Shown: positions 6,431 to 30,278, counted from the first letter of the stretch. The stretch is 64,000 nucleotides of DNA from an uncultured bacterium (GCA_903894565.1 CAITQP010000007.1:28213-92212), one strand, 5' to 3'. Numbers and translations: made by a program. Notes: generated by a model not told the origin, from the letters alone.

Positions 6431-6913
6431 TTATGGTTTGAGGTATCGTTTTGGCACATAATGTTCGCGCACAACGAGCCACAAAATGATGACATCCATC
6501 AGGATGAAGAGCGAGAGTGATAGTGAATAGCTCACGATCACGCAATATATTTCATACAAGAGCAGTCCCCCGAACCCAATGACCGCAACAGGAAACGACC
6601 ACTTTTTCTTAAAGTACAATCCAAAGATGATACCAAGCTTGATGATGCCGTGAGAGAGTAAATAAAATACGATAAAAAATTTGCTTGCTGCGGAGAGCTG
6701 AGTCACACCGCTCATGAGCAGATTCGACATGAAATCTCTCGGCATTTCTGTGAGTTCACCATGAGCAATCGTAAGTACAAACGTCGTTATCGCATTTGTA
6801 CTGATGAAATAAAAGAGAACCCCTGCAACAATCTCCAAAAAAGCCTGTAGGGCTTTCAGGAATAGGCCAATTTCATAAACAACGAATATTCTTTTTTCCT
6901 CGATTATTTTCAT
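6431..6913 (-). CDS. hypothetical integral membrane protein (160 aa)
   Basis: Four hydrophobic segments. Confidence 0.5.
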   Translation of the reverse strand: MKIIEEKRIFVVYEIGLFLKALQAFLEIVAGVLFYFISTNAITTFVLTIAHGELTEMPRDFMSNLLMSGVTQLSAASKFFIVFYLLSHGIIKLGIIFGLYFKKKWSFPVAVIGFGGLLLYEIYCVIVSYSLSLSLFILMDVIILWLVVREHYVPKRYLKP

Positions 6914-7066
6914 TTAATCTAAAATATCTATTTCTTAACGACTTTGCATTACCCCATGAGAGTGCAAGCACCAAAAATATATCCGGCTGTCAGAAGGACA
7001 ATGATCAAAAACGAAAGATAAACCTTTTTCATAGTACGATTATACCAAATTAAAAAAATCATCCCG

Positions 7067-7105
7067 AATAAAAAAGATTGCCAGGTAACATTTGCTACCT
7101 GGCAA
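7067..7105 (-). terminator. rho-independent terminator downstream of the NHL-repeat gene
   Basis: Inverted repeat TTGCCAGGTA / TACCTGGCAA (7078-7105) with an 8-nt loop, followed on the minus strand by TCTTTTTTATT. Confidence 0.5.
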
Positions 7106-7143
7106 TCAATGAACTATCGTACAAATTACTTACTCAAACGAAT

Positions 7144-8406
7144 TTATTTAATTATCGTAATTTGTTTTCGAACAAGCACTCTTCCGGACTTTGTCCCTAC
7201 GAGGGTATAAATATATGCTCCATTCGGAAGATTCTCATCCAAATAGTGATTTTTATTTTCAACCCACACAACCGCGCCCCTGAGGTCATAGACGATTATG
7301 GTACCTTCCTCTGCTGACTCTTGAGGCAGCACGGGGACAGCCGTTGGATCGTGCACGACTTTTCGCACACGATCATTCTCCACATCACAGATGTAGAAGT
7401 CGCCAGCTTCATCATACGCAATACCGCGAACGGCATTTATCCGTGCATCTGTTGCAGGACCTCCGTCTCCACCGTAACCGCTCACGCCAGTACCAACAAA
7501 TGCTGTGATAACACCTGACAGGTGTATCGTCCTGATTTCTGCATTTCCGCCGTCGGAAACAGAAATGTCTCCATTACGTGCGTTATACGCAAGATAGACC
7601 GGAGTCTCAAACTCAGCGCCAGTAGCAGGCCCACCATTGCCACTAGTACCAAATGTACCCGTTCCCGCAAGCGTAGTAATAATGCCATCCGTGCTTACCT
7701 TTCTGATTTTTATGTCACTCAAATCAGCAACGTAGATGTTTCCATTCTGGTCCGCACATAGACCACAGGGAGACATCAACTCTCCGTTCGTCGCAGGGCC
7801 ACCATCTCCGCTCGAACCAAAAACACCGGTCCCAGCAATAGTTGTGATAATTCCAAATGTATCAACTTTCCGGATACGATGGTGTCCGCAATCAGAGATA
7901 AACAAATTTCCCGTGTTATCAAAACACAGGCCGTTAATCGTGTTAAATTGCGCATTTGTTGCAGCTCCACCATCGCCGAGAGTGCTCCCTGGAGCATTCC
8001 CAGCAATAGTTGTGATAATTCCAAATGTATCAATTTTCCTAACTACATTATCGTCAGCAACGACGAGACTCCCCTTAGCATCAACAGTGAGGGTGTAGAT
8101 ATTGCTCATGCCCGCATTTGTTGCGGGGCCACCATCGCCGCTCGATACGCTTGATCCATTCCCAGCAATAGTTGTAACAATTCCAGATCTTGTTATTTTC
8201 CTAATTTTAAATGTGTAGGGATCTGAAAAATATACATTTCCGTTATACACGGAAACATCTCCGGGCGCAGTAATTTTCGCCCGAGTGGCTAGACCTCCGT
8301 CGCCACTGTACCCACGCACGCCGGTACCAGCAATCGTGCTGATATTTTGTGCATTCGCATTAATAGTGGACAAAACAAGGAGCGCCACCATAAGAACTTT
8401 CTTCAT
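7144..8406 (-). CDS. secreted NHL-repeat beta-propeller protein with C-terminal T9SS-type (Por secretion C-terminal) sorting domain
   Basis: Signal peptide MKKVLMVALLVLSTINANAQ. Repeated SGDGGPAT/NHL-like blades (IRKIDTFGIITTIAGN and IRKVDTFGIITTIAGT). The C-terminus IIVYDLRGAVVWVEN...LPNGAYIYTLV...K matches the T9SS C-terminal domain consensus. Confidence 0.65.
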   Translation of the reverse strand: MKKVLMVALLVLSTINANAQNISTIAGTGVRGYSGDGGLATRAKITAPGDVSVYNGNVYFSDPYTFKIRKITRSGIVTTIAGNGSSVSSGDGGPATNAGMSNIYTLTVDAKGSLVVADDNVVRKIDTFGIITTIAGNAPGSTLGDGGAATNAQFNTINGLCFDNTGNLFISDCGHHRIRKVDTFGIITTIAGTGVFGSSGDGGPATNGELMSPCGLCADQNGNIYVADLSDIKIRKVSTDGIITTLAGTGTFGTSGNGGPATGAEFETPVYLAYNARNGDISVSDGGNAEIRTIHLSGVITAFVGTGVSGYGGDGGPATDARINAVRGIAYDEAGDFYICDVENDRVRKVVHDPTAVPVLPQESAEEGTIIVYDLRGAVVWVENKNHYLDENLPNGAYIYTLVGTKSGRVLVRKQITIIK

Positions 8407-14597: not shown

Positions 14598-15380
14598 ATG
14601 AAAAAAATAACAATATTTATCGTACTCACCTGCGCATTCGTGAGCGCCTACGGACAAAAGATCCAGTATCAAATGTCAAACCCCCTCCCAGACAGCCTTC
14701 GAAGGGTCTTAAAAAGTACTTTGCAGGACTTCCAAAAGAAGTATGGGAGCCTTGGGACCATTGTAGTTCGGGATACAACCGAACAGAACATTTATGCGAA
14801 CGATGGGACCACCTGTACGCTCGCAAGGGCGCACCATGGAAGCGTAAGTATAAATGTATTCGCCCTCAAGCGGTACAATCTGACCAAAATTGATTTTAGG
14901 AATACGATTGCCCATGAGGCGAAACACATGTTGATCCCCGAAGGAATTCGTTTGACCAAGCCATTCAAATTGGCTGACGGACATACAATTATCGGATTTA
15001 GAGGATTGAATTTGATAGTTGATTCCGTCAACGACGTCAAATTCGCAAAAATTGAGGAAGGTTCGGCGGAAGCACTCGCCTCATTGTTATACAGTGATTA
15101 CACGTGCTTTGATTCGATGGATGTTCCCTTGGGAACATTGGTTCGGTGCTGTATCCAAGCAAAATGGATCACAACAACTGACCTGATAAGAACAACCAAG
15201 GAGAGCGATGTGCCAGGCTTGGTTGGCCTCATTCTGGGAATACCGACAAACAAAGTTACCGCGAGTGACATCGTTTGTGTGGTAAATGCATTTAACTATG
15301 CATACCAAAAAAGTGATTACAAACTCCCCTTTTTAGCTTTACAACAAAAACGCGGAGGAGTGCAAAAATTTAAATTTTGA
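14598..15380 (+). CDS. secreted protein with HExxH motif (putative zinc metallopeptidase)
   Basis: Signal peptide MKKITIFIVLTCAFVSAYG. HEAKH motif with a downstream Glu (EEGSAE). Confidence 0.4.
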   Translation: MKKITIFIVLTCAFVSAYGQKIQYQMSNPLPDSLRRVLKSTLQDFQKKYGSLGTIVVRDTTEQNIYANDGTTCTLARAHHGSVSINVFALKRYNLTKIDFRNTIAHEAKHMLIPEGIRLTKPFKLADGHTIIGFRGLNLIVDSVNDVKFAKIEEGSAEALASLLYSDYTCFDSMDVPLGTLVRCCIQAKWITTTDLIRTTKESDVPGLVGLILGIPTNKVTASDIVCVVNAFNYAYQKSDYKLPFLALQQKRGGVQKFKF

Positions 15381-15436
15381 ACAAATAGTAAGTTAGGGGC
15401 AGGAATATATATTTCTGCCCCTAATTTTTTTATAAC

Positions 15437-16126
15437 TTACCGCTGAGAACAAAGACGAGACTGATGACCCCAAACAGAAATGCCCACACTAGGATAATTA
15501 CTGCACCCGAGGAATCGGCCGAATTTGCCGGATCGCTCGACGAGCTGTCCGCCGCACTTTGGACAGACCGAACTGGCGGTGCCAACCGAAACATCGATTT
15601 TGGCGAGGCGCAGATAGTCCATGAGTTTGAATCTGTCAACGAGTTCAATCGGCTTTTCTGCGGCGAATTTCTCGGCGTCTAAAGTGAAGACGTTGGTCGT
15701 AATGAAGTAACCCTTTCCTCCGTCGAGCTTGTCGGCAATTGCGCCATAGAAGTCGCGCACCGCACCGACAGACACTTGGCGCGTGATGAACTTCTTGCAT
15801 TGTATGTAGTGGACGACTCCATCCTTCTCGGCTTCGACATCTATTCCGCCGTCCCCGACACCACCGACCACTCGCGTCTTGTATCCAAGAGCGCGAAAAA
15901 GTTCGGCTGTGTACGATTCAAACTCAGACGGAGTGAGTCGCTGTAAATCTAAAATCTTTTTCTTACTGAAGAACCAACGGATACGACTTTTACGGTTGAG
16001 CAGATCAGTCAGCACTTGCAACGCGAGTGCGAGAATTACAACACCTCCTGCCAGAAGCCAGAGTTTTTTAACAGCCCATATTGCTTGTAAAATCTCAAAA
16101 AGAAAGTTACTTGTTCCAAAGTTCAT
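15437..16126 (-). CDS. membrane-anchored Mrr-cat family restriction endonuclease-like protein with C-terminal topoisomerase-type C4 zinc ribbon
   Basis: N-terminal transmembrane helix. Mrr_cat core GDGGIDVEAEKDGVVHYIQCKK (D...ExK). C-terminal CPKCGGQLVERSGKFGRFLGCSNYP; the final Cys of the ribbon appears missing, so a frameshift or truncation near the C-terminus is possible. Confidence 0.6.
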   Translation of the reverse strand: MNFGTSNFLFEILQAIWAVKKLWLLAGGVVILALALQVLTDLLNRKSRIRWFFSKKKILDLQRLTPSEFESYTAELFRALGYKTRVVGGVGDGGIDVEAEKDGVVHYIQCKKFITRQVSVGAVRDFYGAIADKLDGGKGYFITTNVFTLDAEKFAAEKPIELVDRFKLMDYLRLAKIDVSVGTASSVCPKCGGQLVERSGKFGRFLGCSNYPSVGISVWGHQSRLCSQR

Positions 16127-16149
16127 ATATCTAAGTAAATAAACTGCTC

Positions 16150-17934
16150 CTAACTTTGTTTGACTGGAGACATAGTGATTCGAGGCTCCCCGTTTGCATC
16201 CAGATACGGCGAGACCCTTCGGAACCCGTCCTGAATGCGCGTTCCAAAATTGTCATTTCCGGAAAGGAATTTCTTGAAATTGTTATATACCGCGTTTAAG
16301 AGAGTGTTACTTTTTTCGCCGTACTCGCTCGTTTCTGAGCCCGGAATATCCGCAGCAATTTTATCCGCCTGCTCCTGATGAGATTTTTCCGTTAGAACAT
16401 ATGTCAGAAATTCATAAGTATTGAGCCATCGCTCCTGCTCCGGACGATCAGCTTTTTGCATGAAGAAATCGAACTGCGCCTTCAGATTCTTATAGAAATC
16501 TTTTTCTGCGTCGTTCAGCAAATAATCATGCTCTTTGTTATTCTCGTCTTCCAACAGCAAAATGATGTGATTCGTCAAATAGTGTAATGATTCATGTAAA
16601 ACCGTCTCATTATAGCCTTCTTTTGATGTGTATAGCTCAGGTTCGGAAATAATGAAATCGTTCGTTGATTTTAACTCTCCGTTTTCGAGGGCGATGTTCG
16701 TCTGGGCTGTTCCGAGGTGCTTGTGAGGATTCTCTCCTTCAAAAAGAGCGACATCCAAATTTTGTGTCCCTTGTAAAAGTAAGCTCGCGAGTGTTTTCTG
16801 TCTCAGGTCGGTTGTCGTGTCTTCGATTCCCCGAAGAACTTTTGCGAGCTCTTTCTTTTCCAAGCCGAGGTATTGCTGCCATTCACCGAATTGTTCCTTG
16901 AAGTTATCCGTTCGCACTACCCTCCACGCATGCTCATCTAGATTCGACTGAGGTCCGCCTTTATAGGCGAGCAAACTGCCATGCTCGTCTTTGTCTTCAT
17001 CGGAAACATGAATCACCTCGGCCTGCTCTTCCGCTTCCTGCGTCAGAGAAAAAGCATAGCTCAATGATGCATTTTCCAGCTTTCCACCCGCAACAAATTC
17101 TTTGAATCTTTTAGTATCTGACTCTGAACCGAGAATATGAATTTGGGATGGATCGAAAACGATGATCCATTTTTTCTCTCCTTCCAATCCGCTTTTTCTT
17201 ACGATCTCGCTGCCGTCATCAATGACAGCATCATAGCCCATGGATTTTAGAGGCTTAATCTGATACTCGTTCAGATTACCAATGAAATTCATATTATGAC
17301 TTAAATCTATAACGAGGTTATTATCGCTATTGAAAAGGCCAATTTCTTTTTCCATTCTCGGGGGCTTAGTGACAATAAGTTTATCGTCTTCGATGCGATG
17401 TTTCCATCCTATGGTTGCCCATCTCTCTAGCACGCCTTCGGTACTCAACACCGTGTCTATTTCTTGTTGCCCCTCTGCCAAGACCTTATCGTCAATTTTC
17501 GAAATTTCTTTCTCTCCAGTCATTACTGGATTCTTTATATCAACAACGGAAGGAATTATTCTTTTAGCTTGATTTTCTACACTTCCACTACCCCGAGTTT
17601 TCGCATCTTCTAGACTAGAAGTAAAAAATACACCTCCATGTTTTTTGAACCCGAAGCTCGATTCTTTCTCCACATCGAATTCAGAAAATTCCTCTTCGGA
17701 AGTAGTCCCGTGCCAAACAATGTCTTTTACCTTGCTTTCAGGGAAAATAGTTTCAAGATATTTTTTGTACAACTGAACAGCCTCGGGTGAAGTTCCCCCT
17801 GCCACCCTAGCTAAGTCAGGGCTAAGCTTAAAAATTTCGTGAATGTTATTTTCCTGCACGGAAATAAAACCTTCTGACTCCTTATGACCAGGGTCTCGTT
17901 GCATATTTTCCATCGGGTTCATGTTTCCAAACAT
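16150..17934 (-). CDS. large hypothetical protein (594 aa) with possible PARP-like ART-fold N-terminus and an HExxH motif
   Basis: VWHGTTSEEEFSEF and GGVFFTSS resemble the PARP/diphtheria-toxin-type H-G-[ST] and G-x-[IV]-[YF]-F motifs. HESLH motif lies in the C-terminal half. 23-nt gap to the downstream Mrr-like gene. Confidence 0.5.
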   Translation of the reverse strand: MFGNMNPMENMQRDPGHKESEGFISVQENNIHEIFKLSPDLARVAGGTSPEAVQLYKKYLETIFPESKVKDIVWHGTTSEEEFSEFDVEKESSFGFKKHGGVFFTSSLEDAKTRGSGSVENQAKRIIPSVVDIKNPVMTGEKEISKIDDKVLAEGQQEIDTVLSTEGVLERWATIGWKHRIEDDKLIVTKPPRMEKEIGLFNSDNNLVIDLSHNMNFIGNLNEYQIKPLKSMGYDAVIDDGSEIVRKSGLEGEKKWIIVFDPSQIHILGSESDTKRFKEFVAGGKLENASLSYAFSLTQEAEEQAEVIHVSDEDKDEHGSLLAYKGGPQSNLDEHAWRVVRTDNFKEQFGEWQQYLGLEKKELAKVLRGIEDTTTDLRQKTLASLLLQGTQNLDVALFEGENPHKHLGTAQTNIALENGELKSTNDFIISEPELYTSKEGYNETVLHESLHYLTNHIILLLEDENNKEHDYLLNDAEKDFYKNLKAQFDFFMQKADRPEQERWLNTYEFLTYVLTEKSHQEQADKIAADIPGSETSEYGEKSNTLLNAVYNNFKKFLSGNDNFGTRIQDGFRRVSPYLDANGEPRITMSPVKQS

Positions 17935-17973
17935 ATGTAAAAGAATTATAGCAGAGTTAATGACCTAAAGCAG

Positions 17974-18148
17974 AAAACACCCGTCTTGGACTCGAACCGA
18001 TACGAACAGCAAAAATACCTTCCAATAGAAAGGTATTTTTGCGAATTCACGCACATTTTGAATTTTTGAGGCCTCTCGGACTCGAACCAAAATTTTGCGA
18101 ACAAACTTGCAAAATAAGGCGTCTCGGTCGGTCTCACTGTTTTGCTGC
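17974..18148. repeat. direct repeat copy A (~175 bp) containing tRNA T-arm-like motif and AT-rich hairpin
   Basis: About 80% identical to 19408..19581. Contains CTTGGACTCGAACC (17985-17998, a reverse-complement tRNA T-arm), the hairpin AGCAAAAATACCTT-N9-AAGGTATTTTTGC (18008-18042), and TCGGTCGGTCTCACTGTTTTGCTGC. Confidence 0.6.
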
Positions 18149-18247
18149 CGCACTGCGACTCGAACTTTTCTTGAAAATACGTTGCTAAATATAGACTTCG
18201 GTTTTCAATTTCTTTGAAATTCTTGGTTCGAGTCCGAGCAGGGTCAG

Positions 18248-19369
18248 TTATTTCTTAATCCCAAGAAGAGGCAGGACCGCGCCCTCGCCGCCGTTATCAC
18301 CAACAAGGGCATTCCCTGATCCATCCTTGTTAATTGAATACATCAGATGCTCTCCGAAATCTCCACCCTTTGAGGAATCGATACTCTCATATGCCAACTT
18401 GTCGCTTGATAGCCAAGCAATCGGCTGAACTATCACCTTTCCGTTCTGCGAAAGCATCTTAGATGTTTGCAGGCTAGCAATATCAGCAAGGTAAATGCCT
18501 CCCGTTGTACTGTTCGCAAAACTGTAAGCAAGGTTTTTTCCATCTGGCGACCAAATGAGATTTACGTAAGAATCCGTATTGCTCTGGATAACAGTCTGGT
18601 TAGAAGAGCTATCGAGGTTAGTAATCCCAATAGTGTACGGAGACTTCCAGTCGGTATAATACTCGCCCGGAACAAATGTAATGTATGCTACTTTGCTTTT
18701 ATCAGGAGAGAACGTGACGTTATTGATGCTGACGACATTTGGAACGGCAGTCTTTTCGATAGCGCCGCTTGTCATATTGATTGCAATCATGCCTCCGGAA
18801 GTCGCTCCATGATCACGCCCGGGGAGAACAAGAACATACATTTCTGAACTATCAGCCGACCATGCGACAGGCTTCAGCGGGAATAGTCCGTACTGCGTCA
18901 GAGAATATTTCCCCGTCAGATCTGCGATCATTTTTTGATCAGTGCCGTCATTATTAACTGTCCATAATTGGATAGAGGGATTGGGATTAAAGGTATTCGG
19001 AGCTTTTGAAAGAAATTGGGTATTCTTGAAATATGCGATCCGCTTTCCATCTGTAGAAATAGAAGGATAGGTGTAATCGCCGTCAGCTGGAAGATTGGCA
19101 ACTTTTTTTGGATCCTGACCATTTCCAACGATTGACAAGACACCGTCTTTTATTACGGCGAATTCTCCAGCGTCAGAGTAAGTAGTGTACCCCGCATAGA
19201 ACCCGCTATTTACGGAAAAAGGCGTAACACTTTTTGAAGAAGGCGTTTTTTCTGATGTTGAAGGCAAGTCCTGAACGGAGTCTTTTTGAGCATGCTTAAG
19301 AACGAAAGCATACATGGCAAGTGCTACGACTAAAACAGCGAGAATTCCTATAACGATATTCTTTTTCAT
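18248..19369 (-). CDS. membrane-anchored PD40/TolB-like beta-propeller protein
   Basis: N-terminal transmembrane helix. Repeated PD40 signatures SPDGKRIAY, SPDKSKVAY and SPDGKNLAY. Confidence 0.6.
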   Translation of the reverse strand: MKKNIVIGILAVLVVALAMYAFVLKHAQKDSVQDLPSTSEKTPSSKSVTPFSVNSGFYAGYTTYSDAGEFAVIKDGVLSIVGNGQDPKKVANLPADGDYTYPSISTDGKRIAYFKNTQFLSKAPNTFNPNPSIQLWTVNNDGTDQKMIADLTGKYSLTQYGLFPLKPVAWSADSSEMYVLVLPGRDHGATSGGMIAINMTSGAIEKTAVPNVVSINNVTFSPDKSKVAYITFVPGEYYTDWKSPYTIGITNLDSSSNQTVIQSNTDSYVNLIWSPDGKNLAYSFANSTTGGIYLADIASLQTSKMLSQNGKVIVQPIAWLSSDKLAYESIDSSKGGDFGEHLMYSINKDGSGNALVGDNGGEGAVLPLLGIKK

Positions 19370-19407
19370 ATAACTAAATTTTATCACACATCATGCTTAA
19401 AATCTCC

Positions 19408-19581
19408 AAACACCCGGCCTGGATTCGAACCAACTCAATTAGCAAAAATACCTTCGCACTAGAAGGTATTTTTGCTAATCCACGCACATTTTGAATTTTT
19501 GACGCTTCTCGGTCTATAACCAACATTTCCTAAAATACGTTGGTAATTAAGGCCTTTCGGTCGGTCTCACTGTTTTGCTGC
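19408..19581. repeat. direct repeat copy B (~174 bp) containing tRNA-Gln-like T-arm fragment and AT-rich hairpin
   Basis: CCTGGATTCGAACCAA (19418-19433) is identical to 16 nt of the tRNA-Gln 3' half at 31886-31901. Hairpin AGCAAAAATACCTT-N10-AAGGTATTTTTGC at 19441-19476. Confidence 0.6.
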
Positions 19582-19712
19582 GGGGACTAGACCAAGTTAG
19601 AACCGCACTAATGACAATTTCGGACCTAAATCGATTCGCAATTGTGGCAAAATGGCAGACAATTATTTAATTAAAACGCCATTCTTGAGCTAACGTATTT
19701 TGAGGAATTTAC

Positions 19713-19740
19713 TTGACAAAGTATATATATTGTGTATAAT
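19713..19740 (+). promoter_or_regulatory. sigma70-type promoter TTGACA-N16-TATAAT
   Basis: TTGACA at 19713-19718, a 16-nt spacer, and TATAAT at 19735-19740, about 110 nt upstream of the ORF at 19851. Confidence 0.4.
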
Positions 19741-19850
19741 ACATACCGTTCATTGAACTATAGCGGGAATGGAGAAGTCCGCAGAAAGCCATCAAGGAAA
19801 CAATTGATCTCGGTCGCACTGACGTACAGGGCACAAACGCACATTTACAA

Positions 19851-20360
19851 ATGAAAAGCGTTAAACTAACACTCACAAAGCTTGGCATCGCCGCTTGTGA
19901 AAGAATGTTCAAACCAGGCATCGAAACAATCGAATTGCCAGGAATCGGAGAAATGAAGGTGGTGACAATCCTCACGCACGAGGATGAAGCCATTGACGTA
20001 ATGAGGCTCGAAGCAGAGCTACACCCAACCAGTTCTCGTGGCTGGATCAAGCAATGCCTCATGTGGGGAGTGAAGCTTGGACAGGAAGTTCTCCCAGAAT
20101 CAAATAATGGAGAGAGCATCATGAGCCTCATCGTCCGCACATTGGTCGCCCTCGACACCGAACATGTGCCGTGTAATTTTATCCTCATGCGGTCGCACGT
20201 CCGTGATGAGGGTGCCGTACAGCACAGGAGTGATTGTTACTACAACTATCACATCGCCCAGCCACAGCAGGAATTGATTGCCGTCGCCGTGCGGAACGCA
20301 AAAATCGCGGGGCATCACCCAGACCATGCGCTCATGCTGATACCTGGCGCACTTAGTTAA
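19851..20360 (+). CDS. hypothetical protein (169 aa)
   Basis: Preferred over the overlapping antisense ORF 19709..20188, which is low-complexity. A strong upstream promoter is present. Confidence 0.4.
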   Translation: MKSVKLTLTKLGIAACERMFKPGIETIELPGIGEMKVVTILTHEDEAIDVMRLEAELHPTSSRGWIKQCLMWGVKLGQEVLPESNNGESIMSLIVRTLVALDTEHVPCNFILMRSHVRDEGAVQHRSDCYYNYHIAQPQQELIAVAVRNAKIAGHHPDHALMLIPGALS

Positions 20361-20479
20361 AGAAAACAAATTGAAGTAACAGCCGTCCATCACAAGTGGG
20401 CGGCTTTATTTTTTATAGAATAAAAAAGAGGCTCTCAAAAAATGAAAGCCTCATAAAAATCTGTTTTGCACAATAGAAA

Positions 20480-21019
20480 TCAGGCAGTTGCCTTTTTAAA
20501 GATAAACCTCTCATGAATGGGAATCTTGTGCTTTATTCCGTCTGGCTCAAACAGTTTCAAAATCTCGGATTCAAGAATCCCTCCGAATGTCTCAACGGGG
20601 TAGCCTGCGTCCTCGACCAGTTGCCCGAACTGTATCTTTTTCTTCCGCACTGGAAGGTCTTTTCGGTGAACACCGAAAATAATTTCCCGTATGCCAGTCT
20701 GAAAAATGACAGAACTGCACATTTGGCAGGGTTCGGCAGTCGTGTAAATTGTGCATCCTTCGAGACGCTCACTGCGCTGTTCCTTGCACGCCTTGCGTAT
20801 CGCCACGATCTCAGCGTGATTGGTCGGGTCACAGGTATGCTTGTCTTTGGCATGACCCCTACCGATGACTTCGCCATTTCGCACGACGACCGCACCGATG
20901 GGAAGCTGATTTTTCTTTACTTTCTTGGCTTGCTTGATCGCCTCACGCATGAAATGCTCATCATACGGATTGTTCGCCCCGTGATTTGCTGGAGGGGGGG
21001 GTAACTCTTTTCTAACCAT
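20480..21019 (-). CDS. CDA-fold nucleoside/nucleotide deaminase (TadA-like) with ~50-aa C-terminal extension
   Basis: Zinc-binding motifs HAEIVAI and PCQMC. N-terminal DEHFMREAIKQAKK aligns with TadA. Confidence 0.7.
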   Translation of the reverse strand: MVRKELPPPPANHGANNPYDEHFMREAIKQAKKVKKNQLPIGAVVVRNGEVIGRGHAKDKHTCDPTNHAEIVAIRKACKEQRSERLEGCTIYTTAEPCQMCSSVIFQTGIREIIFGVHRKDLPVRKKKIQFGQLVEDAGYPVETFGGILESEILKLFEPDGIKHKIPIHERFIFKKATA

Positions 21020-21207
21020 GTCTATATTTTTTAGTGGGTTACCTGAAACTCCGAAAGCCAGAGGCTCGGGTAACCCACGAAAATCCTGTCAAAGAGCGAT
21101 GTATAATTTTACATTAACACGAATTGCATTTTTTGACAATCAAACTAAATCGTGTTATTTTTAAACCGAAAAAGCAAATTCATCACAATTCAAAAATATG
21201 ATCAATC

Positions 21208-22044
21208 ATGCAAACAGAAACACTTACTCGCCCAAAGAGCGAAGTCATGAAAGAGCTTCGCTCGGCACTCATAGCCGCATTTGAAATCATTGGCTACAAG
21301 AATTTCGTACACTACAGAATATCCAAGGAAAATCACCTCACATCGTATTTCGACATCACCATCTTGGGCGATGAGAATGCGGACAAGAGGAAGCTGAAAT
21401 GGGATGCCCTGCTGGATTCTATTATCAGGGAGTTCGAGACGGAAGCGAACTTCAAGGTGCTGGACGACCAGAACGAGCAGATCCGCTTGTGGGTCGGACA
21501 GGAATGCGAACTGCGCCAGAGCCAGCCGAAGAAAGAGATCGTCATCGCGGTTGAAGAAATTGTCGAGGAAGTGATTGAACAGTTGTCATTTTTTTCTCCA
21601 CTGATTCCCGTCAAAAAGGAAGAGAAGCCGAAACCCGTGCCCGTCGCACAAGCACCCAAAGCAAAGGTCATGGTCAAGCCGAGCATGTTTCTCAAATCAC
21701 ACAAGAAAGGCAAGGCGATCTACGACAAGAGGATTCTGGCGGACATGTACATGACAATCTATATGTCACTACAGAAAGAAGCCAAGCTGAAACTTGGAAG
21801 CGACTTCAGCCTGAGCAATCCCGATGGCTCGTCGCTTGAGCTAAAGTTCGTCCCGAGCCAGAGCAACGCTGGGCTGTCTGTCGCAGAGAGAGTTTCAAGA
21901 GCGCGCACGCATTTTGAGACCAAGTTCAACAACGATACGACCAATCCTTATTTTCCCATTACGCTCGGCAAGGATTCCGTGCATGAGGAGATTATCGTTT
22001 TGAACGTCGCCGAGGAATATCACAGGCGATGCGAGACAAAGTAA
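21208..22044 (+). CDS. hypothetical protein (278 aa)
   Basis: ORF in a region that looks GC-richer than the flanks by eye, followed by a terminator. No recognisable domain. Confidence 0.5.
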   Translation: MQTETLTRPKSEVMKELRSALIAAFEIIGYKNFVHYRISKENHLTSYFDITILGDENADKRKLKWDALLDSIIREFETEANFKVLDDQNEQIRLWVGQECELRQSQPKKEIVIAVEEIVEEVIEQLSFFSPLIPVKKEEKPKPVPVAQAPKAKVMVKPSMFLKSHKKGKAIYDKRILADMYMTIYMSLQKEAKLKLGSDFSLSNPDGSSLELKFVPSQSNAGLSVAERVSRARTHFETKFNNDTTNPYFPITLGKDSVHEEIIVLNVAEEYHRRCETK

Positions 22045-22059
22045 TTGCATTTTTATTTT

Positions 22060-22097
22060 AGGGCTACCCGCTGAACGCTGGTAGCCCTATTTTTTTC
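22060..22097 (+). terminator. rho-independent terminator
   Basis: AGGGCTACC ... GGTAGCCCT hairpin followed by ATTTTTTT. Confidence 0.5.
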
Positions 22098-22129
22098 TAA
22101 AAATAAGAATCGGTGCGTTCTCAAAGAAA

Positions 22130-24475
22130 TCAGAATGAATCTTTCAAAGAATCCCAGCCAGTAAATGAGTCTGAATGCGAATATTTTTCATTAGTGTTAA
22201 TCTTCCATCCATTCGGACCGTCCTGCACAGCTATACCTCCATCAAAACCTTTTTTGCTTTTGAGCCATACCCGAAGTGCTTCCGCTTTGTAGGTCGTGTC
22301 CGGCATCTCGGCTGTCGAGCCCTTCTTGGTGTCAATGACCCAAACCGCGCTTTTCGTCTTTACGATCCAGTCAGGATAAAAGAGCTTCTCCTTGTTCTCG
22401 TCGGGATTGAAATACGAGATCGAGAAGTATTCACTTCCGGCGTCGCCGTTCTTGTACCACCAAAGAACACTCTTGTGTGCTTCGAGGAATGAGATGAACT
22501 CCTTTTCGTTATCTTCGCCTTTATATTCCTTTTCGATGTAGAACGGCTGTAGCGCCGATTTTTCGGCTTTGATCTTTGCCTCCTTGGCTGTGTGGTAGGC
22601 ATCAGTGAAAAAGAGCGTCTGGCGCGGGATTTCAATCGTCTCCGTGCGCTTGGACCGCTCGGATTTTTTGTTCACCTCGCGCTCGCGGATCGGGCGATAG
22701 GTGGCTAGGGCGTCGCCGACGACGGGAGCAAGGACGCTCGCCGGATTGAGCAGATCGGCCACCACGATCCGGTAGATCGTCTGGCGCGTTTCGCCGATCC
22801 GGTTCAGGAGCCAAACATTTAGAGCCGTCTTCAGCTTGCCCCAGGAACGTTCGGGAGCGAACTTCTTATTCTCGTCCACTTGCTTGGAGATAAGCGCAAA
22901 GCATCGGAGATTATAGAGACGTTCAAGGTCGTACTGTGACATCTCCTGATCGTGCTCGCTTCCCTCGGAGAGAAGCTCCCTGGTGAAGTTGTCATAGTCG
23001 TCGATTTCAACGCCAACAATGATACCGTTGGTCACTATCGGTTCTGGCTCAAGGTTCTTGGCGGCGAGCTTTTTGAGGGCCACTTGCTTGCTATCATTTT
23101 TGGAGATGCCGAAGTATTTATCGGCCGCTTTGGAGAACGTCTCTTGAAAGCTGTCACCAAGGTCATTGTAGTCTGTGCGGCTCATGAAGATTGACTCAAG
23201 CTCGACCGGCTCGACGTCCTCCCTGCGGTGGCTCGGGAAAATAGCCGGACGATTATCGGACTTTGATTTGGCATATTCCGCGAGAACTTCGTTGCGCTTG
23301 TAGTTCGTGTAGAGATAGCCCACGTTCAGCTCCGGCCGCGCGAAATGGACACCGAGCGGCATACGGAGGATACGTCCGACCGTCTGGATGGCGAACGTCG
23401 GGTTCTTGATCTCACGAAACATGACGAGCACTCCCGCGCGTGGGCAATCCCATCCAGTCGCGGCGGCTTGCTTGAACAGGAGGAATGACTTGGGCGAGTT
23501 ATTTTTCTCGATGTCCTGTAAATTAACCTTGTCATCCGAGAGCCAAACGGCGATTTCGTCTTCGAGAACGCCTTTCTGCTTCAAGAAGTTGAGAACTATA
23601 TTCTGTTTGTTGACTGTAGCCGTGTCCTTGCTGGCCTGGTCGTCATTCGGAAGCTGTATAAGGACGAGCGGATTGATGTCTTTGCCGAGCGATTTGTAGT
23701 GTACGGCAAGCTCGCGCCGCTTGTCGAAAGCGAGGGCAAGGAGGATGTCGTCCTGGTCCATGCTCTTGAACTCCTTACGATTAAGGTCTTCTTCTGTCTG
23801 AAAAATGATTTTCTCTTTAATAAGTCCTGCCTCCACGACGTCGTCCCGCTTGGCCTGGACGAAGCCACCGCGCCGCTCGCCAATCTCCTCGGCGTTCGGG
23901 ATATACTTCGGCGTAGCCGAGACGCGGATCGTGATTTTCGGCTGAATGAGGCCGTCCACGATCTCCATGGCAAGGTCCGTGTCGGACCCGATGTGTTCCT
24001 CGTCGATGATAACCACGAGCTTGCGTCCGTCCTCGTGAGTACGGTTGATGACGTTGTCGAACGTGAAGCCCCACTCGTTCTCTTTGCGGAGCTTGCGACT
24101 CTCTTTGCTCTTGCCTTTAATCTTCTGCCAGTTGATGAAAAAGACCGAGTTCTTTGAAAGCTTGCCTCGTGTCAGATCGTTGAGATCAAGCAGGTCGAGT
24201 TCGGATGCGCCGCCGTAGTATTCAAAGAGTTTGTTCTTGCTCTGGACATACGAGTCCTCGCTGAACGTAAGCCAAAGAAAGGCAACATCGTTTCCCTGGA
24301 AGCGCGGATCGCCGACAAGGTCCCGAAGGAACTGCGCGATCATGATCGTTTTGCCCGAGCCGGTAGGCGATTTGAAAACGAGCGGGATGTTCTGGTGCGG
24401 CGATTTCCAGAGCGAAAGGAATTCATCCTTGAGCTTCGCTACGGTCGTTTCTTGGAATGGTTTGAGTGCAAACAT
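22130..24475 (-). CDS. res: Type III restriction-modification system restriction subunit (Res)
   Basis: Helicase motif I SPTGSGKTIM and motif II IIDEEH. C-terminal PD-(D/E)xK (YPDWIVKTKSAVWVIDTKKG). The ATG at 24475 directly follows the mod stop codon (TAATATG). Confidence 0.8.
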   Translation of the reverse strand: MFALKPFQETTVAKLKDEFLSLWKSPHQNIPLVFKSPTGSGKTIMIAQFLRDLVGDPRFQGNDVAFLWLTFSEDSYVQSKNKLFEYYGGASELDLLDLNDLTRGKLSKNSVFFINWQKIKGKSKESRKLRKENEWGFTFDNVINRTHEDGRKLVVIIDEEHIGSDTDLAMEIVDGLIQPKITIRVSATPKYIPNAEEIGERRGGFVQAKRDDVVEAGLIKEKIIFQTEEDLNRKEFKSMDQDDILLALAFDKRRELAVHYKSLGKDINPLVLIQLPNDDQASKDTATVNKQNIVLNFLKQKGVLEDEIAVWLSDDKVNLQDIEKNNSPKSFLLFKQAAATGWDCPRAGVLVMFREIKNPTFAIQTVGRILRMPLGVHFARPELNVGYLYTNYKRNEVLAEYAKSKSDNRPAIFPSHRREDVEPVELESIFMSRTDYNDLGDSFQETFSKAADKYFGISKNDSKQVALKKLAAKNLEPEPIVTNGIIVGVEIDDYDNFTRELLSEGSEHDQEMSQYDLERLYNLRCFALISKQVDENKKFAPERSWGKLKTALNVWLLNRIGETRQTIYRIVVADLLNPASVLAPVVGDALATYRPIREREVNKKSERSKRTETIEIPRQTLFFTDAYHTAKEAKIKAEKSALQPFYIEKEYKGEDNEKEFISFLEAHKSVLWWYKNGDAGSEYFSISYFNPDENKEKLFYPDWIVKTKSAVWVIDTKKGSTAEMPDTTYKAEALRVWLKSKKGFDGGIAVQDGPNGWKINTNEKYSHSDSFTGWDSLKDSF

Positions 24476-24476
24476 A

Positions 24477-26216
24477 TTAGAGTCGGTTAATTTCCTTGTA
24501 AACCTCAATGATCGGCTCGGGAATATCCTCGACTCGGATATGGTCTGTTGAGTACTCGTTTTTGTATTCGTTCTTACCCCAACTGAAAGCGTAAAGGACG
24601 ACAGGGGTGTTCTTCTTTTCGAGCAATTTTATGAGTTCGGGAAGCTTGGTTTTGTCCTCCTTGAAGTAGATGGCGGTCAGCTTGCCGTTGCCCTCGAAAA
24701 TCTGCCACCAATCGGTACGCTCGATTTCGCTGAGCGTATCCTCACGGAGTGCGATCATCTCTCCGGCTTGATGGGATATTTTAACCCTTGCTTCGTCCGA
24801 AATTTTCTGGAGCTTGTCGATGTTCACGAGATCGGTCTTGTAGTACGAGAGATTGCCGCCGAGACCGGAAACGGCCTCGCCCTTCTTGTTCTTGTAGCCT
24901 TTCATGACGCGCTTGATGCGTTCGTAGGTCACTTCCTCGCAAATCTTGTTCTCGTTATTGGTACAAAGAATGAAGCGACGGTTGCCGCCGTCTTGCTTGT
25001 TGAGTTCGAGAACTGCGTGGCCGGTCGTGCCCGAACCGGCGAAAAAGTCAAGGACCGTGGCGTTTTTATCTTCCGACAAAACAAGTATCGAGTCTATAAG
25101 CGCATGAAGTGATTTCGGGTAGTCAAACTTTTTTTCTCCAAGTAGAGATGTTAGTAAGTTCGCACCCATTGATGAGGCAGAGTAATCGGGCTTATCCCAA
25201 ATCGTATAAGGCAACATCCATTCATCACGCATTCTGCCTTTGTAGTAGACCGAGGGATTTTTGTCTTTGTCTAAACGAACGCCCATCTCGGTATTTTTTA
25301 CCGCTTCAACAGTATCGATTGACCATTTCCACGTTCTCTCGCGCCCGTTCGGGTCTACAGGGATTGAAATTACTTCGGAAGCATTAGGCTTTTCTAAAAG
25401 GTCATAAGATTGCCTCTCCGTATTCCATTTTAATTTTGGTATCCGAAAGCCCGAGCAATCCTTCTTTACGAAGATAGGATACTTCATTCTTGGTGACTCA
25501 GTACTGTATTGAGCGCGGAAGTTTCTCCACTCAAACGGACCATTAGCATCGGATTGTTTATAGCGATCGATCTGTTCCTGAGTTCTTGGAAGCCTACCAA
25601 TTTTTGCTTTCGACGAACGACCGTAAAAAAGTGCATACTCGTGAGAAACCTGAAAACCAGAAACACTAGAGCGTCCTTGCGGATTGTTTTTTATTACAAC
25701 TGTCCCAAGATGATTTTCTTCTCCAAATATTTCATTCATCAAAAGCGTCAAGGTGGCAATCTCGTAATCGTCGATGGTTACGAGAATTATTCCTTCATCT
25801 TTTAAGAGCGAACGTGCCAGGCGTAATCGCTTTTCCATAAAGCTAAGCCATTTACTGTGACGAAAAGCGTCGTTGCCATCGACGTAGTCATTGTTATAAA
25901 TCCAGTTTTTTGCTCCTGTGTTGTATGGCGGATCAGCGTATATTGCATCAACTTTTCCTGAATGAGTATAGTTTAAAACTGAAAGCGAATGATAATTGTC
26001 TCCCTCTATTAAAATGTTTTTCGGTAAGCAATCATTATTGACGATTTTCCTACTCTGGACCTCCTTCAAAAGTGGCACGTTCTCCGCGCATTGCAAAACA
26101 ACATCCTCCGGTTTGTGTTCCCAAACCAAGCCGTATTTTTTCTGGTTCTTTAATTTTTTGATCTCGGATTGTAAATCGGAGATGCGAGCCAGTAGCTCTT
26201 TTGTATTTTCTGACAT
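24477..26216 (-). CDS. mod: Type III restriction-modification system N6-adenine methyltransferase (Mod)
   Basis: DPPY motif (YADPPYNTG) and SAM-binding FFAGSGTTGHAV. Sits immediately upstream of res on the same strand. Confidence 0.8.
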   Translation of the reverse strand: MSENTKELLARISDLQSEIKKLKNQKKYGLVWEHKPEDVVLQCAENVPLLKEVQSRKIVNNDCLPKNILIEGDNYHSLSVLNYTHSGKVDAIYADPPYNTGAKNWIYNNDYVDGNDAFRHSKWLSFMEKRLRLARSLLKDEGIILVTIDDYEIATLTLLMNEIFGEENHLGTVVIKNNPQGRSSVSGFQVSHEYALFYGRSSKAKIGRLPRTQEQIDRYKQSDANGPFEWRNFRAQYSTESPRMKYPIFVKKDCSGFRIPKLKWNTERQSYDLLEKPNASEVISIPVDPNGRERTWKWSIDTVEAVKNTEMGVRLDKDKNPSVYYKGRMRDEWMLPYTIWDKPDYSASSMGANLLTSLLGEKKFDYPKSLHALIDSILVLSEDKNATVLDFFAGSGTTGHAVLELNKQDGGNRRFILCTNNENKICEEVTYERIKRVMKGYKNKKGEAVSGLGGNLSYYKTDLVNIDKLQKISDEARVKISHQAGEMIALREDTLSEIERTDWWQIFEGNGKLTAIYFKEDKTKLPELIKLLEKKNTPVVLYAFSWGKNEYKNEYSTDHIRVEDIPEPIIEVYKEINRL

Positions 26217-26475
26217 AGGCGATACTATGTCAGGCGGTTCTTATTGAAATTGAAGCTCAAAAAGGGGGACGCCTGATGATCGCCACATAGTACATAGGCC
26301 GAGGCCGTCGCTCATGTGCATCAGGTGTTGCCCCCTTGTTGCTCACGAACGACAGCCCGGCCCCTTTTGAAGGGCTTGGTCCAATACTATGTGGCGATAA
26401 GTATAGCTTAACAGAAAAACCAATTTTTTACACTAAACGTGGTAAAATGACTATTCATAAAACAAAAAAAACGCC

Positions 26476-27846: not shown

Positions 27847-28030
27847 TCAGAAAGACATTGAACTAACAAGATAACGGCTATGGAATAGTGGCGACATGGG
27901 ATGCTCAAATTGAGCTCCTTTTTGTTTTGCTCAACTAAATGCCATGGAAAAAATCCGAGCAGGTTCTCTGTTTGCTTGGTCTGTCTGTTCATGGCGTTCG
28001 GACGGATCAAGCAAAGAGTGAGCCTGCACT

Positions 28031-28213
28031 ATGTTACCAGAACAGGCCATTGACGAATATATCAAGATGTTCCGAAAGAAGTTCGGAGTCACGCTTTCCA
28101 GACAGGAAGCGTCATTTCGTGCTAACCATTTGGTCAATCTGTATAAGGCGGTCCTTGGCCCAGAGTCATCTGGGGAAGTAAAAAAGGTCGAGAAACCAAA
28201 CGATAGCCGTTAA
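28031..28213 (+). CDS. hypothetical small protein (60 aa)
   Basis: Short ORF in the same orientation within the element. Confidence 0.3.
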   Translation: MLPEQAIDEYIKMFRKKFGVTLSRQEASFRANHLVNLYKAVLGPESSGEVKKVEKPNDSR

Positions 28214-28217
28214 TCCT

Positions 28218-28562: not shown

Positions 28563-28703
28563 CCCTGCCAAAAGGACTAAATGATATTCTCTCTCCCAAC
28601 TTAAATGTCCGTTTAGAGCGAGAAACGCGCGTATCGATTCGGTAACAAAAAGAACCCTAAAAAAGCAGGCAATTATCAAACTAAAAAACACTAAATTAAT
28701 TCT

Positions 28704-28937: not shown

Positions 28938-28949
28938 CCATTCTTAGTC

Positions 28950-30062: not shown

Positions 30063-30091
30063 ACTTGCAATGTAAACAATAGTAAAGTAAA

Positions 30092-30274: not shown

Positions 30275-30278
30275 CATT

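Follow-up and report, generated by a model that had tools for sequence, protein, structure and literature searches.

The closest described counterparts of this locus are the polyvalent proteins of phages and conjugative elements, which include architectures combining ART-PolyVal, an ADP-ribosyltransferase (ART) domain, with a zincin-like MPTase, and whose most frequent theme is an ART paired with an HExxH peptidase (Iyer, Burroughs, Anand, de Souza, and Aravind 2017, PMC5512222). The ART-PolyVal active site consists of a His in strand 1, a Tyr in strand 2, and an Asp in strand 5, and the metallopeptidase region of the N4 virion RNA polymerase (vRNAP) occupies aa 2130–2448 (PMC5512222).

In the window (the whole 64,000-nt stretch of DNA analyzed here), the gene pair singled out in an earlier note was present at 15437–17934, with both genes on the minus strand and 23 nt between them. 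The host is a candidate-phyla-radiation (CPR) bacterium, probably Nomurabacteria-like. We place at approximately 85% the probability that the locus is a mosaic from mobile-DNA insertions at a tRNA-Gln hotspot, made up of a polyvalent-type ART fusion and a separate Mrr insertion. Both proteins belong to known kinds, and the larger one is not of an undescribed type: its combination of ART and HExxH peptidase is that most frequent polyvalent theme. The 594-aa protein has the multi-domain composition of a polyvalent protein (an ART, a linker module, and an HExxH domain, with DANGEPRI near the C-terminus), and it shares with those proteins the ART family PF18760, the pairing of ART with an HExxH domain, and the linker motifs NGxxSxL...FKxWFGxW and DxNGEP. 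It differs from them in having approximately three modules only, in being chromosomal in a CPR bacterium rather than encoded by a phage or conjugative element, in its apparent origin from a recent cassette-to-resident-gene fusion, in its active site (H-F-W/D instead of H-Y-D), and in its HExxH domain, for which relatives are very few and the Pfam MPTase-PolyVal score falls short of the cutoff. The features of the pair are as follows.

15390–15427, no strand: 17-bp hairpin followed by a T run, terminator-like and common to convergent genes (hairpin scan)
15437–16126, minus: gene for a 229-aa membrane-anchored Mrr-type nuclease (ORF call and profile matches)
15440–15490, minus: 17 foreign residues at the end of the Mrr ORF (SVGISVWGHQSRLCSQR), what remains of the 3′ end of a diacylglycerol-kinase gene, read out of frame
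16127–16149, minus: 23-nt spacer, left junction of the Mrr insertion (alignment, blastn)
16150–17934, minus: 594-aa chimeric ORF, ART module (aa 1–284) joined in frame to a resident linker-plus-HExxH gene (aa 285–594) (ORF call, junction mapping)
16177–16200, minus: C-terminal DANGEPRI motif, aa 579–586
16252–16857, minus: HExxH domain, probable zincin-like metallopeptidase, aa 360–561 (phrog_2206 match, invariant columns)
16873–17055, minus: linker module, aa 294–354 (...GSLLAYKGGPQSNLDEHAWRVVRTDNFKEQFGEW) (phmmer)
17084–18127, minus: inserted cassette of approximately 1.04 kb, 215-nt leader plus first 284 ORF codons, absent from the related locus L206 (blastn, alignments)
17140–17721, minus: ART-PolyVal domain, aa 72–265 (Pfam PF18760, structure model)
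17722–17862, minus: helical N-extension specific to the ART subfamily, aa 25–71

The N-terminal region of the 594-aa protein folds as an ART of the H-Y-[acid] (PARP/diphtheria-toxin) type, specifically as an ART-PolyVal domain. Pfam ART-PolyVal (PF18760) matched aa 72–265 above its cutoff (39.3 bits, E = 1.4e-9, cutoff 31.2), with an insertion of approximately 110 aa (aa 136–250) inside the domain. When a confident structure model of the region was compared with known folds, it matched PARP, diphtheria-toxin, and RES folds as well as phage ART-PolyVal proteins, in agreement with the PARP-like fold first suspected from the sequence. All motifs reported for the 594-aa protein lay at the positions first given. 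Those of the ART region (WHGTT, aa 74–78, with FSEF, aa 83–86; GGVFFTS, aa 100–106; and KKWIIVFDPSQIHIL, aa 254–268) correspond to strand 1, which carries the His; strand 2, with its aromatic residue; and strand 5. Four residues are candidates for the active site: H75, F103 (in place of the usual Tyr), W256 (in place of the usual Glu/Gln), and D261. H75 is present and invariant. The catalytic Glu, described earlier as not evident, is indeed absent in its PARP-type form, and W256 stands at the equivalent position; of 90 relatives, 30 had Glu there, 17 Gln, and 5 Asp. D261 fell at the most conserved acidic position of the subfamily (E in 52/90, D in 12/90).

The H-Y-hydrophobic PARPs, including the mono-ADP-ribosylating PARP10 and PARP16, are active mono-ARTs. 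The window ART differs from them in that its strand-2 Tyr is also replaced, by Phe, and sequence identity to them was only 8–16%. By analogy, the clade of the window ART, with H75, a strand-2 Phe, and a Trp at the PARP-Glu position, would be at best a mono-ART or an NAD-binding variant. Its subfamily (YLxTIFPES...QIHILGS) had 138 relatives in IMG/VR, where the median length of the ORFs that contain them is 2,100 aa or more. The giant ORFs of viral contigs contrast with the small genes of CPR and DPANN genomes: in 23 of 32 genome loci, small polyvalent-type ART proteins were chromosomal in episymbiotic CPR bacteria and DPANN archaea. A literature search found nothing on ART-PolyVal in CPR. Searches with the 594-aa protein gave no match among NCBIfam profiles and none among PDB sequences (phmmer). 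The conserved N-terminal "leader" EQEKNIQEVFKLSPEL was considered as a CPR-specific targeting signal and rejected; it is part of the helical N-extension of the subfamily, because viral relatives match from residue 25–31 onward.

A phmmer search of 1.84e9 representative sequences returned approximately 55 matches that covered the linker stretch (aa 294–354) only. Many of these were in proteins of 1,000–7,000 aa with several ART-PolyVal copies, which also carry MuF_C, LPD23, ddrB-ParB, InPase, or PBECR3. Judged by these matches, the linker is the same short module that is found next to ART domains in the giant polyvalent proteins of phages. In such proteins, a DANGEPRI-type motif directly precedes strand 1 of the ART domain (VVDENGEPLVVYHGT). 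The standalone relatives of the C-terminal half (P0139 and P0200–P0203) have the same ending as the 594-aa protein.

A zincin of the polyvalent-protein type is the probable identity of the HExxH half, an assignment that draws on sub-threshold or marginal profile matches and on motif-level evidence. The HESLH motif noticed earlier in the C-terminal half was found at aa 447–451 (nt 16582–16596), and E477 (in AEKDFY), 25 residues past its second His, was invariant in the four aligned family members. Positions 2025–2223 of phrog_2206 (N4-type vRNAP) matched aa 360–561 (E = 6.5e-4), a span of approximately 200 profile positions; the independent ART-HExxH protein P0005 matched the same positions, and the motif ET[ILV][LI]HE[LS][LV]H..T was common to N4 vRNAP and the HExxH half. 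Unlike N4 vRNAP, the 594-aa protein carries no RNA polymerase module. Pfam MPTase-PolyVal (PF18818; 12.9 bits, E = 0.12, cutoff 27.5) and SprT-like (13.1 bits, E = 0.09, cutoff 25.6) both scored below cutoff on this half, and Pfam called no MPTase in N4 vRNAP aa 2000–2500 either. When the C-terminal family was aligned by hhalign with N4 vRNAP aa 2000–2500 (probability 11%) and with P0005 (probability 4%), the HExxH helix alone was aligned. An AF2 model of aa 291–594 built from four sequences was unusable (pLDDT 54), and an hmmsearch of the C-terminal profile against the PDB gave chance matches only (Pur-alpha, MmpL5). Full-length relatives numbered 3 among 1.84e9 representative proteins, and a later profile search gave 7 proteins at E ≤ 0.01. 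Scanned against IMG/VR, the C-terminal-half alignment gave no relative, and an HMM of the HExxH domain run over approximately 3,300 ORFs and proteins from the loci compared found nothing new. The domain family is now defined and, with a handful of relatives among billions of proteins, merits a proper structural assignment.

Related genomes located the joint within the 594-aa ORF. The C-terminal half (aa 285–594) was a standalone gene beside tRNA-Gln in these genomes, and standalone relatives of approximately 319 aa were 77–83% identical to aa 275–594. In L204 and L205, the order FtsE-FtsX-CTP synthase-LDcluster4-tRNA-Gln, syntenic with 31.9–36.3 kb of the window, was followed after 62 nt by the standalone gene. 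In L206, blastn matched 6822–6952 to window 18256–18128 and 7027–7929 to window 17083–16180; the intervening window segment, 17084–18127, was missing from L206–L208. The same three loci had DUF2726 and diacylglycerol-kinase (DAGK) genes at the position of the window's Mrr gene. Homology to related genomes ended a few nucleotides past the stop codon of the 594-aa ORF, and homology to the Mrr family started at Mrr codon 5.

Comparison with related genomes shows the history of the locus, although the order and mechanism of insertion are derived from three such genomes, not from a phylogeny. In the ancestral arrangement, tRNA-Gln was followed directly by a standalone gene of approximately 319 aa (the polyvalent "linker" module plus the HExxH domain). 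The innermost insertion is a cassette of approximately 1 kb (the 215-nt leader plus an ART-PolyVal ORF) that entered right after a tRNA remnant and replaced the promoter and first 9 codons of the resident gene, so that an in-frame fusion, the 594-aa protein, resulted. The Mrr gene is a separate insertion that starts a few nucleotides past the resident gene's stop codon and replaced a DUF2726 gene and most of a DAGK gene; at its right junction the Mrr gene was cut short by 8 codons, among them the one for the fourth zinc-binding Cys. This clean, junction-resolved, in-frame fusion of a mobile ART-PolyVal cassette with a resident linker-first gene bears on the assembly of the highly shuffled polyvalent proteins.

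Were it expressed, the 594-aa protein would act as a compact "polyvalent" effector of the phage/conjugative-element kind: its ART domain would use NAD+ to modify a target, either protein or nucleic acid, and its zincin-like peptidase would either cleave the 594-aa chain itself, at the linker, or work on target molecules. A different account, to which we give a real if minority chance, is that both ORFs, the chimeric 594-aa one and the truncated Mrr one, look intact but are nonfunctional debris of serial integrations and are not under selection. In favor of debris, the ART clade has lost both the strand-2 Tyr and the Glu-equivalent, and a nearby acidic position varies (D, D, K, K, N); against it, PARPs of the H-Y-hydrophobic type are active mono-ARTs. 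Decay of the resident gene has a precedent in L206-type relatives, where it is frameshifted into P0204 (234 aa) and an 81-aa ORF (22 contigs), whereas a stop-free ORF of 594 codons across a fusion joint is unlikely to last long by chance, and the leader supplies it with a TATAAT-like box and an ATG. The Mrr protein, short of one zinc ligand and with an out-of-frame tail, also fits debris. Against debris as an account of the fusion, ART-HExxH fusions occur independently elsewhere, as in P0005.

The insertion mosaic that we prefer has its own described counterpart in tRNA-gene-targeted genomic islands mobilized by serine or tyrosine recombinases. The window likewise has a tRNA-Gln gene abutted by two recombinase genes, and, as in such islands, the tRNA 3′ end recurs farther inward as degenerate direct repeats and the defense cargo varies. 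The features of the hotspot are as follows.

17935–18148, minus: 215-nt leader repeat, copy 1, directly 5′ of the ART start codon
19368–19581: 215-nt leader repeat, copy 2, directly 5′ of a beta-propeller gene (18248–19387)
28950–30062, plus: tyrosine integrase
30279–31925, plus: large serine recombinase
31877–31948, minus: tRNA-Gln, complete

Approximately 14.8 kb separate tRNA-Gln from the resident gene in the window, and this interval holds the serine and tyrosine recombinases, a Type III restriction-modification system, a deaminase, the beta-propeller gene, and tRNA-3′-end remnants. The tRNA-Gln site was empty in L204, and in L206 it held different cargo (an OLD-type ATPase and a UvrD helicase). 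The tRNA-like integration scars that had been noticed upstream of the pair are real fragments: GGTTCGAGTCC, allowing at most one mismatch, occurred 6 times against 0.9 expected, with 4 of the 6 within 17988–19431. No recombinase belongs to the ART cassette itself, which sits beyond the last recognizable tRNA remnant. Among related loci, ART relatives lay directly downstream of serine recombinases in L003 and L201–L203, and in L004 a distance of 1.8 kb separated the Mrr relative from a recombinase that shares 84% identity with the L003 one. Within 10 kb of the 594-aa gene there were no genes for virion or conjugation functions.

The window differs from tRNA-targeted islands in its innermost pieces, which are single-gene cassettes with a common 215-nt leader; we know of no described island with this feature. 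The leader holds tRNA-like pieces and a TATAAT-like box. No tRNA, tmRNA, or Rfam family was called in it, its two copies showed no covariation, and it was not found in any other locus compared. It is conceivable, although we think it unlikely, that the tRNA-Gln hotspot of these CPR bacteria gathers single-gene cassettes under this leader, with its tRNA-like pieces and promoter, that one of them added an ART module in frame to the resident linker-plus-peptidase gene, and that the small ART proteins might be effectors against the symbiont's host or its phages rather than virion cargo. If true, the locus would be a snapshot of domain accretion by polyvalent effectors.

The earlier note had proposed that the two genes form a sensor/effector system. 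As a lineage-specific conflict module (defense or toxin), the ART/peptidase protein would sense or modify a target and the membrane Mrr protein would be the effector, a proposal that we now judge very improbable. The genes are on the same strand and 23 nt apart, with no terminator-like site between them and a strong hairpin only after the second gene, but the 23-nt spacing is an insertion junction, and co-transcription, which may occur, would be accidental, a by-product of the insertions and not a sign of designed pairing. The core residues of Mrr_cat are preserved, but the Mrr gene is truncated at its other junction and the ART half is itself a recent fusion. The pair was not found in other genomes: a relative of the Mrr protein was present within approximately 6 kb at 0/114 ART loci (34 genomic and 80 viral), and a relative of the ART or C-terminal domain was present at 0/83 Mrr loci (tblastn and ART HMM). 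Related genomes carried one gene of the pair without the other. The region is rich in defense and mobile genes, yet PADLOC found no system match for the 594-aa protein (nothing better than E = 0.027) and gave generic Mrr-domain matches only for the 229-aa protein (PDC-S02, ZorD, mREase_IV); no described ART-plus-Mrr system was found in the literature. The comparative data leave room for lineage-specific coupling after insertion, because the exact arrangement was seen in one population only. Two independent insertions made the adjacency, and a false lead, the ART-plus-nuclease "system," is removed; adjacency and short spacing within an integration hotspot are poor evidence of functional pairing.

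Neighborhoods of the two families were also compared. No neighbor was conserved across the ART-relative loci, except that serine recombinases turned up now and then and three DPANN loci were syntenic with one another. At Mrr-family loci, a DUF2779 protein (16/83) and a 233-aa protein (13/83) recurred; the window Mrr gene differs from these subsets of the family in having neither neighbor.

The partner gene encodes, as the earlier note had read it, an Mrr_cat nuclease anchored by a transmembrane segment, with a zinc ribbon of the topoisomerase type from which the last Cys is missing, a reading that profiles and a family alignment both uphold. The 229-aa protein has a single hydrophobic segment at aa 22–43 (nt 15998–16063; Kyte-Doolittle maximum 2.27), Mrr_cat (PF04471) at aa 61–170 (nt 15617–15946; 91.8 bits, E = 4e-26, cutoff 21), and Zn_ribbon_Top1 (PF01396) at aa 187–212 (nt 15491–15568; 48.5 bits, E = 7e-13, cutoff 32), the last covering model positions 3–28 of 39. 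The Mrr motif GDGGID...IQCKK is intact, and D92, D96, Q109, and K111 were invariant in the family alignment. The ribbon has three of four Cys (C188, C191, and C208), the fourth being lost at the junction after P212. Eleven Mrr family members end in ...GCSNYPKC[DS]YTxKL and a stop codon, in contrast to the window Mrr, which reads ...GCSNYPSVGISVWGHQSRLCSQR before its stop, so that 17 unrelated residues replace the last 8 codons with the fourth Cys. DNA homology to the Mrr relative in L004 stopped at nt 15492, window 15407–15489 was 83% identical to the end of the L206 DAGK gene, and nt 15430–15486 read VWAFLFGVISLVFVLSGKL and a stop codon in the kinase frame.

A frameshift had been suspected in the ribbon. 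The fourth Cys is instead missing, with no sequencing frameshift, because a recombination junction removed the last 8 Mrr codons, and the DNA downstream is a DAGK remnant. A single-base frameshift restoring the ribbon was tried as a candidate and rejected, as the other frame yields a Cys and no family-like end in DNA that comes from the DAGK gene. Sequencing or assembly error as the source of the missing Cys, the fusion, or both is the least credible account, for although a shifted frame gives a Cys at the right spacing (YPxCGHF...), it runs 31 codons through the terminator, the DNA past the YP codons is homologous to the DAGK gene of a related genome (so that this is a junction, not an indel), the identical 594-aa protein is recorded on several contigs (the longest 95 kb), and a second assembly, L001, perhaps built from the same reads, agrees with the window at 100% identity across 17 kb.

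With the junction in place, the DNA-binding zinc ribbon of the window copy appears to be damaged, and the Mrr protein would be a PD-(D/E)xK DNA nuclease in its own right, tethered to the membrane and drawn from a family that is common among these bacteria. The same membrane-anchored layout occurs in the Mrr/type IV restriction endonuclease family of CPR, named "restriction endonuclease" in Candidatus Nomurabacteria. The window Mrr was 86% identical to a Nomurabacteria protein, and at least 717 relatives at E ≤ 1e-10 had the same arrangement of transmembrane segment, Mrr_cat, and zinc ribbon.

The earlier note had proposed that a 594-aa protein with ADP-ribosyltransferase (ART) and HExxH motifs forms a novel two-gene system with a membrane-anchored Mrr nuclease. 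The pair and an adjoining gene remnant were located as follows:

16150-17934, minus strand: 594-aa ORF
15437-16126, minus strand: 229-aa ORF (Mrr protein), 23 nt from the 594-aa ORF
15430-15486, minus strand, in a frame other than that of Mrr: diacylglycerol-kinase remnant, last ~19 codons (VWAFLFGVISLVFVLSGKL, then stop)

All motifs named for the large protein were found (WHGTT, aa 74-78; GGVFFTS, aa 100-106; KKWIIVFDPSQIHIL, aa 254-268; HESLH, aa 447-451). No terminator-like site was found between the two ORFs, a 17-bp hairpin with a T run was observed 3′ of the second (229-aa) gene, and both genes may be on one transcript. The window is chromosomal DNA, and its right part codes for type IV pilus genes, DNA ligase, GatCA, a release factor, FtsEX, and CTP synthase. 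A convergent neighbor (14598-15380, plus strand; 260 aa) stands outside the gene pair; its N-terminus carries a hydrophobic, signal-like segment, it contains an HExxH motif of its own (IAHEAKHM), and Pfam gave no match.

Searching with a profile of only the HExxH domain returned standalone 319-aa proteins (P0200-P0202) that were 77-83% identical to aa 275-594, and a truncated copy (P0204) that was 94% identical. In two related genomes (L204 and L205), the gene order was FtsE, FtsX, CTP synthase, LDcluster4, tRNA-Gln, 62 nt, and the standalone gene; their tRNA was 97% identical to the tRNA-Gln of the window (31877-31948), and the flanking genes aligned to window 32.0-36.3 kb. In the window, 14.8 kb lie between tRNA-Gln and the homologous coding sequence. 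Closer relatives (L206-L208) showed 85.6% identity over 16180-17083 and also matched 18128-18256, with 17084-18127 absent. The alignments diverged directly after a tRNA remnant (...GTTCGAGTCGCAGTGCGGCAGC) and resumed where codon 285 of the 594-aa ORF corresponds to codon 10 of the standalone gene; the absent piece consists of a 215-nt leader and 284 ART codons. Leader and ART codons are missing from these relatives and homology resumes in frame, which identifies the 594-aa ORF as an inserted ART cassette fused in frame to a resident linker and HExxH gene, whose own stop codon ends the ORF. In L206 and L207, the resident gene was broken into two ORFs of 234 and 81 aa, the longer of which is on record for 22 contigs.

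Homology to the relatives stopped a few nucleotides past the 594-aa stop codon, and DNA homology to the Mrr family (L004, 84% identity) was limited to 15492-16114. Window 15407-15489 shared 83% identity with the 3′ end of the L206 diacylglycerol-kinase gene, with the kinase end residues (VWAF.FG.I.LVFVLSGK., then stop) still readable at 15430-15486; L206 has DUF2726 and diacylglycerol-kinase genes in place of Mrr. Together, the homology breaks on both sides, the kinase remnant, and the L206 arrangement show that Mrr arrived by an insertion of its own, distinct from that of the ART cassette. The left junction of this second insertion produced the 23-nt spacer and the right junction the loss of the last eight Mrr codons, including the fourth Cys, and an accompanying deletion left the kinase remnant behind.

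The stretch from tRNA-Gln to the resident coding sequence contained the following features:

31877-31948, minus strand: tRNA-Gln
30279-31925: large serine recombinase, overlapping tRNA-Gln by 49 nt
28950-30062: tyrosine integrase
22130-26216: Type III restriction-modification pair
20480-21019: deaminase
17935-18148 and 19368-19581: 215-nt direct repeat, two copies, 75-79% identical

A beta-propeller gene and degenerate tRNA 3′-end copies were also present, as was a 16-nt T-arm copy (TTGGTTCGAATCCAGG) at approximately 19416-19431. Positions 19400-31948 form a genomic island at tRNA-Gln; several of its ORFs had no match in Pfam. The repeat copies lie directly 5′ of the ART start codon and of the beta-propeller gene start, and both begin at a tRNA-remnant junction (GCAGC|AAAACAGTGAG...). 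Each copy has two tRNA T-arm/acceptor-like pieces, a TATAAT-like box approximately 10 nt ahead of the ATG, and a perfect 13-bp hairpin whose loop differs between copies. Rfam gave no match to the repeat, and no further copy turned up in approximately 210 other loci; it looks like a shared leader of two single-gene cassettes. The same hotspot in the GROS21 metagenome scaffolds L206 (1834-5409) and L207 contained genes for an OLD-type AAA_15/TOPRIM ATPase and a UvrD helicase, a putative Gabija-like pair; L207 additionally contained an N6_N4 methyltransferase.

In L003 (4004-6490), a gap of 37 nt separates a large serine recombinase gene from an ART relative downstream of it; in L201-L203 (L201, 2830-5496), the gap has the same length and the upstream ORF is partial and recombinase-like. 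This position, directly downstream of a recombinase gene or ORF, suggests that small CPR ART-PolyVal genes are moved as the terminal cargo of elements that carry a recombinase. L031 provided a further example of such a gene directly downstream of a recombinase gene or ORF. The Mrr relative in L004 was separated by 1.8 kb from a recombinase that shares 84% identity with the one in L003, and both families occur elsewhere as cargo beside large serine recombinases.

The two families were not found together. No Mrr relative was present within approximately 6 kb of the ART relatives in 32 loci from species-representative genomes (20 CPR, 3 DPANN, 9 others), 80 IMG/VR loci (kept from 138 matches), or two metagenome contigs. 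Reciprocally, tblastn with 21 queries and the ART HMM on six-frame translations detected no ART or C-terminal-domain relative at any of 83 Mrr loci (80 metagenomic and three others), and PADLOC returned no system-level match. The proposed new two-gene system is not supported, and nothing suggests that the two genes act jointly. Both proteins belong to known kinds. Other neighbors of Mrr recurred, namely, a DUF2779 protein of approximately 490 aa directly upstream with an overlap of a few nucleotides (16 of 83 loci; e.g., L124, 1793-3265) and an uncharacterized protein of approximately 233 aa directly downstream (13 of 83; e.g., L121, 5654-6355). L005 and L006 had Mrr operons that also encode an HSP70-like protein and an AAA ATPase.

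The Mrr protein has one N-terminal hydrophobic helix, an Mrr_cat core with intact D...QxK residues, and a topoisomerase-type zinc ribbon. The family gave 717 matches at E ≤ 1e-10, mostly of approximately 220 aa, with source names including Nomurabacteria; the best relatives were from Candidatus Nomurabacteria. Together with the chromosomal gene content, this makes the organism a probable CPR (Patescibacteria) bacterium. The Mrr protein is a predicted membrane-tethered nuclease of a common CPR family, and the basic stretch after its helix makes a cytoplasmic location of the C-terminal domains probable. All aligned members end in ...GCSNYPKC[DS]YTxKL, whereas the window copy ends in ...GCSNYPSVGISVWGHQSRLCSQR, and its zinc ribbon appears impaired. 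Either gene may be functional or merely not yet decayed; under a rival explanation, both ORFs would be non-functional debris of serial integrations.

The ART fold of the N-terminal half, proposed earlier from motifs, was upheld: aa 72-265 matched ART-PolyVal in Pfam (PF18760; 39.3 bits vs. a cutoff of 31.2 bits), and an AlphaFold2 model of aa 1-300 (18-sequence alignment) had a mean pLDDT of 83.7. Foldseek gave no significant match in PDB and 14 matches at E ≤ 1e-3 among viral models, several labeled ART-PolyVal-like. The ART-PolyVal active site consists of His (strand 1), Tyr (strand 2), and Asp (strand 5) (Iyer et al. 2017, PMC5512222). The 594-aa protein retains H75 and has F103 in strand 2. 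W256 is the gap-free aligned counterpart of the PARP/diphtheria-toxin "E-Y-I" Glu (E in 30, Q in 17, and D in 5 of 90 relatives), and D261 is the most conserved acidic position of the subfamily (E in 52, D in 12). The four closest relatives share F and W, with D, K, K, or N at position 261. Because these active-site residues deviate, it is uncertain whether the protein has ADP-ribosyltransferase activity. Replacement of the Glu by a hydrophobic residue still leaves PARPs with mono-ART activity.

A full HMMER scan of aa 291-594 against 1.84 billion representative proteins gave 61 matches, approximately 55 of them restricted to aa 294-354. Many of the latter were giant proteins that Pfam identified as true polyvalent proteins, with up to seven ART-PolyVal copies together with MuF_C, LPD23, ddrB-ParB, InPase, PBECR3, or NUDIX domains. 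In the giant proteins, the motif ...FKxWFGDWE...VVDENGEPLVVYHGT leads directly into ART strand 1. This sharing points to aa 294-354 as a polyvalent-protein linker module and to the C-terminal end DANGEPRI as the same boundary motif that precedes ART strand 1.

The HExxH region (aa 355-575) had very few relatives, and its Pfam matches to MPTase-PolyVal (E = 0.12) and SprT-like (E = 0.09) were both under cutoff. Residues 360-561 matched positions 2025-2223 of a PHROG family of N4-type virion RNA polymerases (E = 6.5e-4), and in P0005, another ART-HExxH protein, it was the unrelated-looking C-terminus that matched the same positions (E = 1.5e-4). These positions probably correspond to the zincin region at aa 2130-2448 of the N4 polymerase (Iyer et al., PMC5512222). 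A Glu 25 residues past the second His was invariant in the family. The model of this half had a pLDDT of only 54, and profile-profile alignments were confined to the HExxH helix. The region is a probable zincin-like peptidase.

The fused product would follow the logic of a small polyvalent effector, with an ART, possibly NAD+-binding or NAD+-transferring, tethered through a polyvalent linker to a putative zincin. In the published polyvalent-protein model, the zincin processes the polypeptide or attacks targets. Of interest are the junction-resolved ART fusion at an integration hotspot, the rare HExxH domain, and the distribution of the ART subfamily (YLxTIFPES...QIHILGS), which occurred as small chromosomal ORFs on genome contigs (median approximately 390 aa; n = 32, including 20 CPR bacteria and 3 DPANN archaea), whereas on viral contigs the ORFs were giant (median stop-to-stop length at least 2,100 aa; n = 80). 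The CPR ART relatives P0002-P0018 carried varied additional modules placed after the N-terminal helices and ahead of the ART, one with a GNAT-like Q/RxxGxG motif and another starting YRIENKNI...PDGITSHKDLKGQWF; a C-terminal module of approximately 300 aa was common to P0004 and P0010. Their architectures are small, shuffled, and polyvalent-like.
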